Below are positions 3,301-12,300 of a DNA stretch of 26,844 nt, one piece after another. The notes under the pieces are model-generated. The model had not been told where the DNA came from and searched no databases. It worked only from the letters and a program-made list of their open reading frames with translations. Both the position numbers and the translations under genes were made by a program. The stretch is from positions 1-26,844 of the forward strand of contig JAQUMS010000001.1 in assembly GCA_028717985.1 (NCBI GenBank). Direction: 5' to 3'. This stretch comes from Candidatus Omnitrophota bacterium (GTDB lineage Bacteria > Omnitrophota > Gorgyraeia > Gygaellales > Profunditerraquicolaceae). Positions within the stretch are counted from its first letter, which is position 1. Each line of letters starts with the position of its first letter.

Positions 3301-6300
3301 AACCCTGTTTGAATTTCCTGTCCCATTCTCTTTTAAGATTCCTGTCAAACTCACTTTCATCTCCTCCGTCATTTTCCCTGTTTTGAGCAATAATGCCTCC
3401 TTGAGGCATGAAACCAGAAGCAGAAAATGCGGCGCCTTTTTCCGGCGCTAAAGGATACTGTATGCCCACGGCAGAAATACCGGCAATTTCTTCCAGCCGG
3501 GCCAACACGGAAGGCACCGAGTAAAGTTCATCAGTATTGAAAATTTTCCCTTCCGCTTTACGATAATTACGGGTATACCCGATAAGCAATTCAACGGTTT
3601 TCGGCGTCACCACCCATTCTTCATCAAAAACATATCCCCTTTTCGCTAACGCGCGGTGTATCGCGCCGAGCATATGGCTGCCAAAACCCGTCACGGTTTT
3701 TAATTGCGGCTGTTTAAGCTGATCTTTAATAATCCGTGCCAACACGTCGCTGTTGACTTCGCCTATCATAAAAAGCTGAAGCACCCGCTTCAATACATCA
3801 TCATTTTCCCGAAGATATTCAAAAATATCGGCATATTCCTGATCTCTCACGCTTAACGACTGTTTCCACTTTTCAGAAACATCCCCTGATTGGATTTCCA
3901 GGAATACCGCCATAATGGGATTATGCGTAATTTCATTGATGTTAAAATTTGATTTTTGCACTTTGATGATGGAAACGGCATTTCTAATCATAACGGCAAA
4001 CAAATAATCCTCTTTCATCAGATCTTGCAGCACGGCATATTGTTTTTCGGATACCACAGCCCTGGTTTCAGCATACACAGAATGGTACGGAAGATTTTCA
4101 TCAAGAGCTCTCAGCACATACCGATACGGGCCTACAATGCCGCTCGCCTGTGCAAGAGTTAATGATGATTTGTGAGCAATAATATCCTTGGCTTTATTAA
4201 GGATAATGAGCCTCTTATCCCAGAAGCCTATACCAAGAGCGGAATCAGCCTGAACGATCAATTCTTTAAGCTCGTCATTCTTTTTAACTTCGATCAATAG
4301 AGCTTCATACTCGGCGCTTGTCATTAAATTTTGCGCTTCGATATCCAAACCGCGATACGATACGTTATCAGCTAAACCTTCGAATATATATATATACCTG
4401 CCAAACAATTTTCGTGCAGACCAAAAATCTATTCTTTTGTCGAGCGCTAAAACTAAAGATGCTTTTTTGATTAACGATCCCGTGATATCGCGTTGATGAA
4501 TATAAATATTTCGCATAGCGTTGTTCACGATCTTGGTAAACTCAATATCCCGCTTTTTGTTCCCCAGAATATTTTCATATTCATCCTGGCTGATATTATC
4601 CCAGGCACAATGGTCTAATTCCTGATACGCCAGGGACCGGGAAAGTCCGCGTAAAACAAAATACGTATTCCCGATCAATTTGACGGCATCTTCCGGAGAC
4701 ATATTCGCGTTCTTTTTCGCGGCCAATACCTGGGCCCTCCCCATTAATATCTTTCTCCAGCCGTTCTTGGCAATAACCATCTGGTCGGCATGTATAATAT
4801 AATCAGCAAACATTTCATCCCGTTTCATTTCACCGAGCAAAAATTCATATGACGCTTTTACAAGGATTTTCTGCCTGCCCACAGGAGATATTTCAAACTG
4901 CTGGGCATGCGCCAGAGAATGAATAATAAGATAATTGTGGTTAATTTTAGCCTTAGCCTGAGTTATGCCCACTATTTCTTCGTCATTCACAATTTTGCGG
5001 GCACTGGCTAAAATTTTATTTTTGATGCCTTCCATCCTTATATTTATAGCCTTGCCGGAGGCGCGGACTATTTTTCTTCCGAAACCGGCGTCATCTACTA
5101 TCTCCCGGGCAAGATAATAATATATCCCTGCGGACAGTTGGCGCCGCGCGTAATCGCTTAGGGAAGAATACGGCATGCCTTCCGCTAAAATCCTCATTAC
5201 CTCAAAATGATACCCGATCAAACCTTCAGCCAACGCCCTGCTGATCTTACCTTCCTGTAAAAGCAGTAAATCCGCCTTGTCCTCCAAAACCTGTTTGTAA
5301 TATTCCGGAGTCACATCGATACCGGAGATACTTCCAGTTACCGCGCTCCTGAAAACAGGATTTCCAGTTAATGTTTCAACTATTTCATTATACGTATGGA
5401 ATGAAACCATTTCTAAACCGTTGCTGTGTAATTCCACGTATTTCAAGCCGCGGGCCAAGCCGAGTAAAACATAGGCATAATTGCCGATAAGTTTAAGACT
5501 ATCTTTAAGAATCAACTTCCCGTTTTCCGAGTCCGCCAATATCTTTGCTCTTTCCCAAACAGACTCGTGTTTAACCTTATCAGCCAAAACCATAGTGTCA
5601 GCTTCTGTTATAACCATTCCGAAAAGTTTATCGTTTACCATCTCGTCCTGCAAATACTCATAGGAATCCTCAGCTATGGTATTACGAAAATCTTCGCGCA
5701 AAGAAGAATACGGAAGGGAAACCGCAAGGGCATGTATAATATAATAGTATCTGCCGACGATATCCCGGGCCTCAAGAATATTCATCACCTCGCCTTTTGC
5801 CTTGATAGCGAGAGCTTTATCCGAAAAGGTTTTCTTTATTTGTAAAATCTTTATATTAACAATCTTGTGGGAGGCGGTTCTAATTGTTTTCTTAAAATGC
5901 GCATCAACGCCCATCAGGCTCAAAAGATATTCATAATTCTCCATTGCGATTTTTCTCTGGGCGCCTTTCTGAAGGCTGTCATACGCTGTACCGTTAGCCA
6001 GCGCCATAATAATATTCAACTGGTATCTGGAAATTAACTTCACGGCTTCCACTTCGCTCACCGGCGCGCGTAAAGCCCCAAGAATATCCGCTTTTTTGAG
6101 CAAAGTATCTTTAATATTCATCACCATTTTCTTGCGTGTTACAAGTATTTCATTCCCGGATTGGTTTTTGATACCGGAAGTAATAACGGTATTTTTATCA
6201 GCTATTCCACCGTCAAAAAACCGTTCGGGGCTTTCAAGGTCAACTTCGCATTTAAATCCGGATTGGGCAGGTTCACAGCTAAACATCCTGTAATATTGGA

Positions 6301-9300
6301 TCCGGGAAATAAGGCGGACTTCAAGCTTTTCAAGCAAAGCGACAAATTTCTTATATTCAGGAATTTCATGTGAACCGACGTATTCAAGATAATCCATCAT
6401 ATATTTTGAATCGGGCATATCTTCAAAAAGCTTGCGCAGGTAATTCATATAATCATGAAAAGAAACACCGCCCTTGCCGTTTACCTGTTTCATGGTAAAG
6501 AGAAAATCCTGTAATCCCGCGCTGTCCGCCATCCATCTGCCGCGAAGCGTATAAAATTCAAACGGTTTCATGTCGAATTTCCCTGAATTAAGCACGGTTT
6601 CCGCATTATCCAAGGTTGCTTTATTGATAAATGCTTCAACCAGGTTTTCTTCCATTTTCTCGTTTAATTTCTCAACAAATCTGAACAGAAAATAAGCTTT
6701 CAGGAAAGACGGCACGGGCTCCTGGGCAATTGTCTGTAAATACGCCATGATCTCTTCCCATCCCTTAACCCCTTTGAACATTGCGTCCATATATTTAATA
6801 AAATCCATAAAATCATTTTCAATAACAGGTTCGGCATGACGGTTAGCTATAAGATTTTTTAATACGGTTTCAAAACTCTTCAACCCGCTCGTCTCCGCGG
6901 TTACCGGACCGGAAACCGTTCTAAACGAAAAACTGTTGACGTTTTTATTCCCGATCATAAGAGTAGCCATCTGTTCTATCGTTAAACCGTTGACCCATGA
7001 TTCCACCAATCGATATTCGGAGCGCCGGGTAAACTGTTTCAGGAGCTCAAGCAGTTCTTTCATTTTTTCCTCGTCACTGATCTGCTTTGACCCGATGAAA
7101 CGCATATGTTTCACGAGTATATCTTTCGTGACGCATCCTTCGCATAAACCCGCGATATACCGGATAAAATGATAAAACGGCGTCCGGATCGTTGTCCCAT
7201 TTTTAAGAAGCATATTCGCCTTATTCATAAAACCGATTATACCCGCGGAATTAGCATACTGCATGCCTTCCGAAGTTTCGAAACCAAAGGGGAACATGCC
7301 GAATTTACCGAATAAAATATTCCGGGCATCGTTTACCTTGAAATCAACGGGGCACAAAGTTTCTATCAATTCATCTCCTTCAAGAGGATCATATTCTTCG
7401 GGAACAATCTCGAAAGACCTTACCTGCTGCCATAGGCCTGACGTCGCGCGGACCGTTCCTTTGAACGGCAAAGGAAAATCTTCCGGGATTGTGAGAGAAT
7501 ATTCAATCACGTTGTCATAAATCTTCCTCACGGGAGAGAACTTCAATCTGATCCCATGATCATTCACCAGTTCAACAAAAATGCTGTCTTCAGGTACCCT
7601 CGAACTGCCGAATGGCGCAAACTCAGGATCAACGCTGATACTAAGCGTTAAAATCAGATTCTTTGCCAGGTTTCCGACCTCTTTCTTTTTACCCATCAGA
7701 TAAAATTCATTTTCATCTTTGAAAATTGAGATCTCTCCCCGGGATGTTGTTGAAGTTAATGTGAGATATTTACTATCTATGCCGATTTCTCCTACCACAC
7801 GGGGATTTACAACCGCCCGTTTTCCTCTGAAACCGTTGTGCCAGAAACGTAAATACGCGGCCGCGGTATAACGAGCGTCAACAAAGCCGCTAATTTTATA
7901 GGCGTATGATTGTAATTGAGAAAGTTCGCCTGACTGATACTGTTCGTTCGCCCATAAGACTACTTTCAAATAAGATTCGGCGCTATCTTTTTCCGGCATT
8001 AAAACATTCCCGGTCATCTTTTCGCGGTTGACCAAATCACCCATAAAAGGAATCATACCTTCCCAATATGGAGTAGCCAACTGTAACCCGCCATTAGCCC
8101 CTATATCAGATTCAGTTGACCCGGCGGCCTCAGTTTCCCTGTCTGAATCCTGGATCTGAACATCGGTAGCGGCTAACGCCTTTCTTTGATCGTCAATGCT
8201 AAACTGGCTCTTAAAAATAAACCGCCCGGAATACACGTCCGGTTCTTTTTCTTTTTTAGATTTTAGATCAGCCTCCAGAGCTTCCAATTCCCCTCTCATT
8301 ACCGGATTCCAACGGGCAACTCCATAAATCACTACCTGTATCCCGGCTTTTACCATAGCTTCGATATTTACGTTGGTAAAAGCACGCTTTCGGCCGGCTT
8401 TTTCCGGAACAAGCCTGCCGAAATAACCGACAACCATCTGATACTGATTTAAACCCATTTCTTTTTTAACATATGATTTTGCCGCTAAAATTTCCAGCGG
8501 CGTAGGATGCAGATAATCACGTGAACCGGTTTTGATCAACGCATCCCTGAAAAATTCCGAAGAATACACGTAATTATCACCGTTAGTAACGCCGAAAAGA
8601 TCAACTGCCGGATCATATTTGTTTACTTCAAACGCGTGAACCGCCGCCACAGCTTTTGAGACATCGGAAGCCCGGACGCCGCCGCTGGTCAAATCCCAGA
8701 CAACTTTCCAGGTGCCGTAATCGTCTACAAAAATGTGCAGGAACAACCACAACCATTCATCCGGAATACCCGCCTTGCGTAAGAAGTTCTTTCCAAATTC
8801 AAAATCATCCGCCCACGCACGGTTATAATACGTGTGAGTAGTCCCGGAGAACAGCGCCGAGTTCATTATTTCAAATGCCTCATCCTTATCCGGCGCGGGA
8901 GCAATACTTTCTTTCTTACTATAAAAAGCCTTTCTAAAGGCGGCAACAGGCAATGTCTGCGCGTCGTTAGAATCTACAACACATGATTTATATTCCTCAT
9001 GAAGCAGTTCTTTTTCATGTTTTTTCTCAACTTCGCGTTTTCTGATCAATTCCAAAGCCGCTTTGTTGAAAAATTCGGTAAACTCCCAAATCGACGCGGG
9101 GCAATCGCACGTGCTGTATTCATAAAGGATGTTAATAATACGGCAGTGATAATTCTCGGGAATATCCCTTATTAAATAAATCGGAATCAGATTAACAGTA
9201 TCACCTCTCTTTACATTCAGGTATCCCTGGGCAACTTCAAACCGGACTTTACATCCCTGAATGAATGTTTCCATTGTTGCGTACGGTTTGATATCGGTTA

Positions 9301-12300
9301 TCGGATTGGGAAGTGATCCGTAATCAACCGTGTACAAATTGCCAAAACTATCCCTTGAATGCAAATACCAGGGAGCAACATAAATGCTATCCGCTCCTAA
9401 TTCAAACATAGCGTTTCCATGATACAATTCAACCCGGCCCAGGCCGCCGGCCATAGGGGAAATTTCCGCTGTTAAATGGTAAATACTTCTCCCTGTCAGT
9501 TCATACGCCTGCATTTTCAACCAATCCTGCACAGCACGTTCATAATCAAGATTTAAAGCAATTGCATCTTCTAACGCGGAGTTTCTCGGACCGCTTAAAA
9601 TCCAATCAGCCATAGTTTTACGGGATGATTCATCAAAAAACATTATTGCCCGGAGAATCACGTGATTTACCTCAACCGGATATCTGCCCCACAAAGCGGT
9701 AACTTTAGCGTATTCCGCGATCACATTAAGAAATTCTTCTTTGCCATGAATAAACCCTTCAGCAAGATCAACATTGATATCTTCCACGTTTCTGGACCAT
9801 ACCGCGTATAACCGGGCATTAAGATCAACGGTAACTTTATCTTCTTCAACGCTAAAATCTTTCCGGTTGCCGCTTTTTGCATTAACAATCAAACCTCTGC
9901 GGCGCAGGCCGTTCAACAAAGAAATCACGTGATCTCTATCCCAGGTAAAACCATGTGCTTCAAAAACATCTTTGGTTTTCTTTAAAATCCTATTTACGGT
10001 AATCTGGCGTGACGATCTTTCATTTAATTCCGAGATTGCCCATACCACCATAAAAGATTTAACCCATTCCGGATCATGAATACCGCGAATAGATTGTTTA
10101 TCCGGGAATGGCCAGGGGATTTCATAACTTCTCTGTCCCGCTTCCGTTCCCGTTGAATAGGCATTCGCAGGAGATATTACATTCCCATTAAGATATCCCG
10201 GATACGTTTCAATACCTCCATCAGACTGCTTCCTCTGCATGATATCTTTGATACGTTCCAAAAATTCATCGTAATCAGCTAAACCCAAATATTGTTTCCC
10301 ATCTATATGAACAACAGAAACGCCCGCTATCTTTAATATTACAGAAATATCGGGAAGAATAACTTCTTCATCCCCCAACGCAACGCGTGTTTGATATTCC
10401 TTAGCTTCTTTTTGAGTAAAATAGAACAAGGTTAATTTTTTATGGTCATATTTAATAAAGAATGTTTTAGGCCTCATCCCGGCTTCTATTTCCATTTCTT
10501 TTAAGACTTTCTGATCAGGTTGAACTGCCGTTATAATGATCCCGCCTTTGCCTTTTCCATTATAAATTTCTTCAAGAGAAGACCCTTCCAGTTGAGATCT
10601 GGAATCTTCGGCCGTTATACCGTTAGCCATCTGGTGGTTAAATCTTTTAAGATTTTCAATTCTTTTCCAGGTAGCAGGAGTGGAAGGAATACGCATTGTC
10701 CTCACAACTGGCTTTTCCCCCCCGTCTCTATAATTTATATCTTTTACTATCTTACTATTAACAAAATTGTCCTTCCCCATTCTGTCCTCAAAAAATTCAG
10801 GGCTATTTTTGTCTCCTAGTTGTAAAAAATCATTTAAATTATTTTCAATATCCAACAAAATCTTATTAATTAATAACAGCTTTTCAGTTTCTAAATTTAA
10901 TTTTGAAATACTCTTTAGAGTAATATATTTATTTATTAAAAAATTTATTTTCAATAGCCTTTCAATATCGTTTTTATTGAATTTTGCTTCGGGGAATCTT
11001 TTTTTATACATATATCGAATCCATTCTGATTTAGCTCGTGCGATAAAAGACAAAGTTGATTCACGTATAATACCAAGTTTACGATCTTCATAAATTAAAC
11101 TTATAGATTTCAATTCTGTAGTAAATATTTTCTTAAAATATGCATCTGAATTATTAATTTGCTGCTGTATACCCGCAGCAATACTTCCGTCAAATATTCC
11201 ATCCCATTCATCTAATTCTTTTTCTTCTCTCTGAGAAAGAGTATAATATCTTTCCACTTCAGCAGGCATCTGTCCGTACACTAATTCCCCTATTTCTGCA
11301 CCCCTTATAAAGGTACGAGCAATAATCTCCCTCCCAAACTCGTGTCCTGGGACAAAAGAGCGGAACCAACAAGAATGAAGACTTATAATATCTTTTTCGA
11401 TTTCGACATCAGCTTTGCCCAAAATTACATTTTTTGAAAAATAATATACTTGGGCTGAAGATAATTTTTCATCATAAAATTTCCACGCTTCAAATATCTG
11501 ATGACTTTCAGGAAACTCCCCATAATTACTAAACATTGGCAATAAACCTGTTTCCTCCAGAAAACCATACAAGATTCCTCGTGTTTCTTTAATGTCCTCT
11601 TTTCCTTCCCCACCGTCTTCTCCAGAGAAATCTTTTACTATTTCATGCAAGATACGAATCATACTTTCTTCTTTATACGCATATTTTCCGTTTATCTCGG
11701 AAAGCTTCACATCGGATACTTTGACAAAATACGATTTAATTCCTTTTCGTGCTAATTCCTCCTTAAGAGTATCCTTATTAAATTCCGCGGGATCTTCGGG
11801 AACAATTTTACTGTATTTTAATTCTCCAATCGCGATCCGTTTTTGGATTTCCGGTTGCTCCAAAATTTTCCTCTGTTCTTCTTTCAGCGCTTGAAACTTC
11901 CAATACGTTGCGGCATCAATCTCCTGAGGATCAAACAGAACTATATAATCACAGATATCCTTAAATTTAAAACTTTTGAAGGAAGTATTCATCCGAATGG
12001 AGCGTTCAATCAACTCTATCTGTTGTATTACAGAAAGACCTTTACTTTCCGTATCCTGCATTATTTTAAACATAAAAATTCTGGGGATATCTTTTCTGGC
12101 TGCCATTTCTTGAGGGATGCCTTCCGTCATCAAATTCGGCAGTAAAGATGTCACAAAACTACAATCGCCAAAAATAATCGCCTGTTTCGTTGAACGTATA
12201 CCTTCAATAGCTTCGAGATTCGCATATGAATATTCACCGGATTTCCGAAACGCATATGTCCTTATTTTTCCCTGTTGTACTCCTACTGCTTTCATTTCAA

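Follow-up and report, generated by a model that had tools for sequence, protein, structure and literature searches.

What does a protein segment do that repeats itself about every 90 residues, resembles no described family and lies inside a giant protein among sugar and glucan enzymes? The question is raised by contig JAQUMS010000001.1 of a Candidatus Omnitrophota bacterium, analysed here whole and called the window: a complete contig of 26,844 bases from a 1.63-Mb, ~80%-complete metagenome-assembled genome of 44% GC. The flagged stretch, encoded on the minus strand, belongs to the interior of a giant protein, P0001. A previous reading of the letters and open frames (hereafter the sequence-only reading) had noted an eight-copy tandem repeat there. 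We found that the repeat is real and that its unit is an undescribed domain family, so far present in three giant proteins punctuated by Asp-Gly-Gly (DGG). We lean towards viewing the array as a non-catalytic structural domain.

Eight diverged copies of one unit

Stacking the region at 90 residues per line aligned it into columns. Consistently, a BLOSUM62 self-comparison of residues 6941-7650 gave peak offsets of 271, 361, 90 and 180 amino acids with mean scores of 0.50, 0.25, 0.09 and 0.06, respectively, while the best offset in each of 500 control shuffles averaged -0.54 and reached -0.34 at most. A profile hidden Markov model (HMM) of the copies detected exactly eight units in P0001, each at an E value of 1e-29 to 1e-35, and no further unit in the remainder of its 8,947 residues or of the genome. 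The units form one tandem array at residues 6910-7630 (window 3953-6115, minus strand). They start at residues 6910, 7001, 7091, 7182, 7273, 7362, 7452 and 7542, a spacing of 89-91 amino acids (267-273 nt). The giant frame and the copies, as placed by the HMM, are as follows.

2-26842, minus strand: slice of the giant open reading frame, P0001; at least 8,947 amino acids, stop-free throughout the window and open at both ends
5849-6115, minus strand: repeat copy 1, residues 6910-6998
5576-5842, minus strand: repeat copy 2, residues 7001-7089; in the two-unit model
5306-5572, minus strand: repeat copy 3, residues 7091-7179; in the two-unit model
5036-5302, minus strand: repeat copy 4, residues 7182-7269
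4763-5026, minus strand: repeat copy 5, residues 7273-7360; in the four-unit model
4493-4759, minus strand: repeat copy 6, residues 7362-7450; in the four-unit model
4223-4489, minus strand: repeat copy 7, residues 7452-7540; in the four-unit model
3953-4219, minus strand: repeat copy 8, residues 7542-7630; in the four-unit model

The sequence-only reading was thus right about the existence and number of the copies. It had located them at 3900-6040, which is the correct region but cuts off the first helix of copy 1, and it had described a strict 270-nt period, where the measured period is 267-273 nt. The motif that it had picked out, GxYxY..AL..LxY, matches the consensus around it, LIGxYxYIxxxLAxxLxYxxL. 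Its view that the duplication is old and has left no DNA-level identity also agrees with our data. Mean identity between copies is 23% for amino acids and 40% for codon-aligned nucleotides, identical residues are encoded by identical codons in 40% of cases, and Tandem Repeats Finder reported no DNA-level repeat of this period. The repeat is real and anciently diverged. That the unit length has been held at 89-91 amino acids despite this divergence suggests a geometric constraint on the array.

An undescribed family in three giant proteins

Sequence searches of Pfam, NCBIfam and PDB with the array and with the copy profile gave no match. Likewise, hmmscan against Pfam (E up to 10) of residues 6900-7700 and of three sub-stretches returned noise only (best E 0.029, YqbF, over 16 residues), and an ESM Atlas feature search with four units gave no usable match. 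Membership in the TPR, ankyrin, HEAT or ARM families was rejected, as no Pfam repeat model matches the array; HEAT_2 occurs in P0001 at residues 1561-1643 only, according to a Pfam scan of the whole protein. The sequence-only reading had called the repeat unrecognised and distinct in period from these four families, and had named paired shorter repeats as the finding that would overturn this. We considered the 90 residues as a pair of ~45-residue repeats, from the known period class of 33-45 residues. This was ruled out: no offset near 45 amino acids was among the top self-similarity offsets, and hhalign comparison of the N-terminal with the C-terminal half of a 13-copy alignment gave a probability of 0.2-0.4% at three split points, below 1% throughout.

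The sequence-only reading had further proposed an HMM of the eight copies as a probe of large protein collections. Searched against 1.84 billion representative proteins with a cut-off of E <= 0.001, this profile found two further carriers, P0002 and P0003. P0002 (1,559 amino acids, E 9e-26) has four copies at residues 735-1120 and a GNAT domain, as well as a Fis-type HTH_8 match (23.3 bits against a cut-off of 22) ~40 residues before the first copy. Its contig (L010) has 58% GC compared with 44% in the genome of the window, indicating that P0002 comes from a different organism. P0003 (6,949 amino acids, E 7e-4) has a single copy, together with kinase, M48 peptidase and SecA domains. Judged by coordinates and frame length, it appears to be a 6,966-amino-acid open frame of the genome G166, which belongs to the same family as that of the window, and an 83%-identical relative exists in a Candidatus Omnitrophota bacterium.

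Around P0002 we also observed that its ATG lies ten codons after, and in the same frame as, the TAG ending a gene of more than 8,152 amino acids (L010 9968-10003), an arrangement seen in two samples. The two may form one giant gene that a single stop interrupts; a recent nonsense mutation, readthrough or genuine coupling could each account for this. They are followed by two PilZ genes.

Six-frame searches of 40 relatives gave no copy of the repeat, and among 400 genomes sampled separately from the phylum G166 was the only one in which it was accepted. Five weak partial matches in phylum genomes, 35-42 residues long, were not counted as members. A weak genome match (L017) with the motif HGxLHLLGYD, YbeY-like by eye, was treated as a chance match. 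Homologues of the whole unit, of giant or fragment length, were also sought through a word index, and none turned up. Giant genes are prone to poor assembly, which makes absence in these searches weaker evidence than it appears.

The carriers thus have eight, four and one copies. The single-copy relative P0003 indicates that the unit probably folds alone, as an autonomous domain whose copy number is probably free to vary. In a maximum-likelihood tree of the 13 copies, those of P0002 separate from those of P0001 and P0003 (89/96), and copies 1 and 4 pair weakly. The tree is otherwise unresolved, with terminal branches of ~2 substitutions per site, and a duplication history of the copies cannot be claimed from it.

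Predicted fold of the unit

Structures were predicted with AlphaFold2. For two units (copies 2 and 3), the model was built on an alignment of six rows, drawn from three proteins, and had a mean predicted local distance difference test score (pLDDT) of 82.7 and a predicted template modelling score (pTM) of 0.55. Both units show the same pattern of six helices. In order, each comprises a 14-residue helix 1, a one-residue beta-bridge, two short helices with a Gly turn between them, a short 3-10 element, a four-residue helix, two helices of 12-13 residues and the bridge partner. The beta-bridge joins the loop after helix 1 to the segment after helix 6 and would close the unit on itself, pinning its two ends. 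In a four-unit model (copies 5-8; three-row alignment; pLDDT 69, pTM 0.40), the helix pattern recurs less regularly and without beta-bridges. The unit is accordingly predicted to be all-helical in both models, and its third helix, the very hydrophobic GxYxYIxxxLA segment, would be central and buried.

Foldseek searches with both models against PDB, and against AlphaFold Database (AFDB) clusters and ESM Atlas structures, returned nothing at E <= 0.001, the E values lying above 1. Similarly, an exhaustive VIA-align scan of 48,161 PDB chains found none at Z >= 5; the best match (Z 4.6) was followed by assorted ARM/HEAT and other helical fragments. ARM/HEAT proteins were among the top VIA neighbours of the single unit, with Z 3.4-4.2 over 55-65 residues, below the useful threshold. 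As modelled from shallow alignments, the unit would be a small helical fold without a significant structural match. These AlphaFold and Foldseek analyses had been proposed by the sequence-only reading, which had suggested a possibly new helical solenoid acting as a spacer. An all-helical unit is indeed predicted and a spacer is plausible, but the solenoid is not borne out, given the predicted closure by the beta-bridge and the single-copy relative.

Conservation of a probable core and variation of the surface

Column statistics were computed on the 13-copy alignment (8 + 4 + 1 copies of the three carriers). Columns 6, 10, 13, 20, 25, 28, 29, 33, 35, 36, 39, 45, 48, 56, 61, 64, 68, 77, 78 and 85 are at least 80% hydrophobic, and nearly all of them fall in i/i+3/i+4/i+7 helix series or at the beta-bridge. 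They include Tyr45 and Tyr61; Tyr34 and Phe74 lie in the same series, along with Leu, Ile, Met and Ala. Within helix 3, columns 33, 35, 36 and 39 are 85-100% hydrophobic and columns 34 and 40 are 77%, and most faces of this helix are hydrophobic. Outside the hydrophobic series, recurrence is limited to Gly30 (turn between helices 2 and 3), Gly42, Asp71 (partial; start of a helix) and Lys9, and no strongly conserved polar position was present among the alignment columns.

The isoelectric points (pI) of the copies range from 4.9 to 9.7, indicating that their surfaces vary; three of the eight copies are acidic, and the net charge of the array is +8 over 721 residues. Aromatic residues are not enriched in the array (Tyr 5.4% versus 4.4%, Phe 2.5% versus 4.5%). 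Because only fold-determining residues are conserved, the domain would lack a catalytic or common ligand site. Conservation in the alignment is thus that expected of a fold kept for its shape with its surfaces left free, which points to a non-catalytic structural domain.

A DGG-punctuated giant protein

Besides the array, P0001 contains Pfam domains of the CofD (three copies), DUF218, HAD-like, HEAT-like and GT5/GT1 types, and a PGI-type domain is also present. In a hydropathy scan of P0001, membrane-like segments were confined to the neighbourhood of residues ~1072 and ~8863, the sole exception being a weak, strand-like stretch at ~5493-5513. With no membrane-like segment between the former two positions, bar this weak stretch, the array would lie in the same compartment as the PGI-, CofD- and GT5-type domains, that is, with sugar-phosphate and nucleotide-sugar enzymes; this would be the cytoplasm.

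Asp-Gly-Gly is far commoner than expected in this protein (20 occurrences, 2.4 expected). The same is true of P0003 (23, with 1.6 expected) and of the gene that precedes P0002 (13, with 1.3 expected). The P0001 motifs lie at residues 40, 1055, 1358, 1414, 1505, 1852, 1875, 2728, 3750, 4382, 5076, 5373, 5541, 6877, 7825, 8136 and 8843, with three more inside CofD-like domains, and 17 of the 20 appear at module borders. C39 peptidases cut after double-glycine motifs, which makes DGG a candidate processing site. Two such motifs bound the unit that holds the array.

3362-6214, minus strand: DGG-bounded unit holding the array, comprising DGG 6877-6879 (6206-6214), module 6880-7824 and DGG 7825-7827 (3362-3370)
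6116-6205, minus strand: leader of 30 residues between DGG and copy 1, delimited by the DGG and HMM positions
3371-3952, minus strand: C-terminal tail of ~194 residues (7631-7824), without a Pfam match

The single copy of P0003 begins 27 residues after a DGG, a leader akin to the 30 residues in P0001, and lies in a 225-residue unit. The tails that follow the repeats in P0001, P0002 and P0003 showed no mutual similarity. By eye only, the first ~60 residues of the P0001 tail resemble the C-terminal half of the repeat and may be a degenerate, partial ninth copy; the HMM detects none there.

Elsewhere in the same genome, about 15 more contigs are end-to-end stop-free single frames of 1,500-4,235 amino acids, many with several DGG (including C9, C32, C49, C52, C37, C65, C71 and C79). 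The giant gene or genes of this genome are much longer than the window and are fragmented in the assembly. Surveys of Omnitrophota giant proteins have described both 'repeat scaffolding' and 'multi-enzyme metabolic cluster' types (bioRxiv 10.64898/2026.06.07.730766; 10.1101/2023.11.21.568195).

A proposed spacer or docking rod

We judge it somewhat more probable than its negation that the array is a non-catalytic structural domain, serving as a spacer or docking rod within one DGG-bounded unit. Eight small globular domains in series would form a rod or chain, of an estimated ~20-30 nm. Such a rod could space the neighbouring enzyme units or, alternatively, dock partners through surfaces that evolve fast and differ from copy to copy. 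Cutting at the DGG sites, if it occurs, would make the array unit a free scaffold protein. A bolder version holds that the fold is new and exclusive to DGG-punctuated giant proteins, and that the eight copies make up a rigid ruler or docking rail, perhaps freed as a 950-residue protein by DGG cutting, that orders the neighbouring glucan-synthesis enzymes in a fixed geometry, with each copy docking a different partner. We regard this version as unlikely.

Several points weigh against a function as spacer or docking rod. Context is a weak argument when there are just three carriers, and the role itself, the rod geometry, the cytoplasmic location and the cutting at DGG are all inferred. The models rest on very shallow alignments (six and three rows) and disagree at the junctions, where the two-unit model has a break and the four-unit model runs helix 6 continuously into the next helix 1; the array may therefore be a rod or a flexible chain. 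Burial and inter-unit packing are deduced from sequence periodicity and from models with pTM of 0.55 and 0.40 and a dip in pLDDT at the junctions. Moreover, Tyr45, a loop residue conserved in 11 of the 13 copies, could be exposed and functional, and the unexplained 194-residue tail might hold the real activity.

Alternative explanations

The last point leads to the alternative that survives best, which we consider a minor possibility. Here the ~950-residue unit would be released by cutting at the flanking DGG motifs and would act mainly through its 194-residue tail, the repeats serving to oligomerise or target it. The strong enrichment of DGG at module borders in all three carriers is consistent with this, as are four Peptidase_C39 matches in the same genome, of which three fall within long open frames, on contigs C32, C170 and C294. 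C39 or S8 domains have been proposed to cleave Omnitrophota giant proteins, at sites not known (10.1101/2023.11.21.568195). However, cutting at DGG is so far putative throughout, and the tail matches no family and differs from carrier to carrier. Release of the unit is compatible with a spacer or docking role and does not exclude it.

Rather doubtful, and a shade less probable than release, is an alpha-glucan (glycogen) binding scaffold, in which tyrosines of the units would face a glucan chain and hold the polymer between GT5-type neighbours. The 'phosphorylase-like' unit upstream of the array (residues 5541-6876) has only a weak match to Glyco_transf_5 (starch synthase catalytic, GT5; 23.9 bits against a cut-off of 22.7; residues 5787-5980, window 8903-9484) and no PDB sequence match, and would be a very divergent GT-B glucan enzyme. 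A strong GT5 + GT1 glycogen synthase (residues 8139-8842) lies two units downstream of the array unit. The array thus sits between a GT5-like unit and a canonical GT5/GT1 glycogen synthase in one of the three carriers; in addition, a multivalent array would suit a polymer ligand, and the loop position of the conserved Tyr45 would fit such contacts. The sequence-only reading, which had placed the repeat between two glucan enzymes, was therefore roughly right, but the next unit downstream (residues 7828-8135) matches nothing in Pfam or among PDB sequences and is not recognisable as a glucan enzyme.

Its suggestion of an aromatic-lined carbohydrate-binding scaffold found little support in other respects. 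Carbohydrate-binding modules are mostly beta-sandwich proteins, unlike the all-helical fold predicted here. The conserved aromatics share their core-type spacing with aliphatic residues, no polar position that could ligate sugar is conserved, and the aromatic content is not raised. Furthermore, neither P0002 (GNAT, HTH) nor P0003 (kinase, M48, SecA) has a glucan-enzyme Pfam domain at E <= 0.001.

A second repeat was noticed directly upstream of the array, at the C-terminus of the DGG unit before it (residues 6487-6870, window 6233-7384, minus strand). It consists of three copies of ~115-130 residues; in pairwise BLASTP, unit 3 matched unit 1 at E 6e-11 and unit 2 at E 5e-8. Neither Pfam nor NCBIfam gave a match, and profile comparison with the 90-residue repeat showed no similarity.

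Quite improbable, in our estimate, is a degenerate helix-turn-helix (HTH) array that binds nucleic acid and recalls sigma-70 region 4 and LuxR/GerE. Helix 2, the turn with Gly30 and helix 3, followed by a segment 'LAxG..Y..L....IS..tY', superficially resemble these domains; the HTH_8 match shortly before the first copy of P0002 points the same way, and sigma factors, DnaA C-terminal domains, TetR and Myb/TRF were among the weak structural matches. All these matches are insignificant, however (Foldseek E above 1, VIA Z <= 4.6). When the 13-copy alignment was compared by hhalign with 22 Sigma70_r4_2 and 11 GerE segments from related genomes, the probability was 0.8% and 0.1%, respectively, against 94.8% for the sigma-versus-GerE control, and the relation was rejected. 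In further disagreement with nucleic-acid binding, no segment of the unit is more hydrophobic than the putative recognition helix, and the array carries a net charge of only +8, with copies spanning the pI range given above.

That the repeat is an artefact, whether of periodic composition or of chance resemblance within a long helical region, has next to no probability: pairwise identities between copies are low (8-34%), but no shuffle came near the observed periodicity, each copy matches the profile at the E values given above and independent proteins of other organisms match among 1.84 billion sequences, which together exclude such an origin.

Relation to known systems

The giant proteins of Omnitrophota, with their dozens of enzyme modules, are largely unannotated; the array is one clean, self-contained piece of them. 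As a candidate domain family it has sharp boundaries, a copy number of 1, 4 or 8 and a confidently predicted unit that is small enough to express and solve, and the DGG-bounded unit offers a possible substrate on which to test the double-glycine processing that has been proposed. The gain lies in better annotation and an experimental handle; no new mechanism is revealed. The family fills a role already recognised in these proteins, repeat scaffolding, and will not surprise a specialist.

Among known systems, sigma-70 region 4 and LuxR/GerE share a superficial motif with the unit (LAxG..Y..L...IS..tY here, LAxGxSxxEIAxxLxISxxTV there) and weak structural matches to sigma factors, but the profile probability is below 1% where the control reaches 94.8%, and the equivalent of the recognition helix is hydrophobic here. 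The ARM/HEAT alpha-solenoids importin-beta, CAND1, APC and Armc8 are among the top structural neighbours by VIA (Z 3.4-4.2), but at sub-threshold Z, with no 40-45-residue sub-repeat in our unit and no Pfam match. Spectrin-type rods, built head to tail from helical-bundle repeats of ~106 residues, offer a likeness by inference: a fixed-length helical unit without variable linkers, in which the last helix would run into the first helix of the next unit, as in the four-unit model. Our unit, however, has six short helices rather than three long ones and no sequence or significant structural match to spectrin, and the continuity between units is of low confidence.

Finally, the unit differs from HEAT, TPR, ARM and ANK repeats in having no Pfam match, a 90-residue period without a half-period and the look of a closed domain rather than of a two-helix solenoid turn. 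It nevertheless agrees with the repeat segments (HEAT, TPR, NHL; multi-enzyme metabolic cluster, Archaeovorin-type) of Omnitrophota giant proteins in being a probably non-catalytic helical repeat between the enzyme modules of a giant DGG-punctuated protein (bioRxiv 10.64898/2026.06.07.730766; 10.1101/2023.11.21.568195). In such giant proteins the DNA-level tandem repeat dissolves while the protein architecture persists (10.64898/2026.06.07.730766), and the eight copies described here behave alike.

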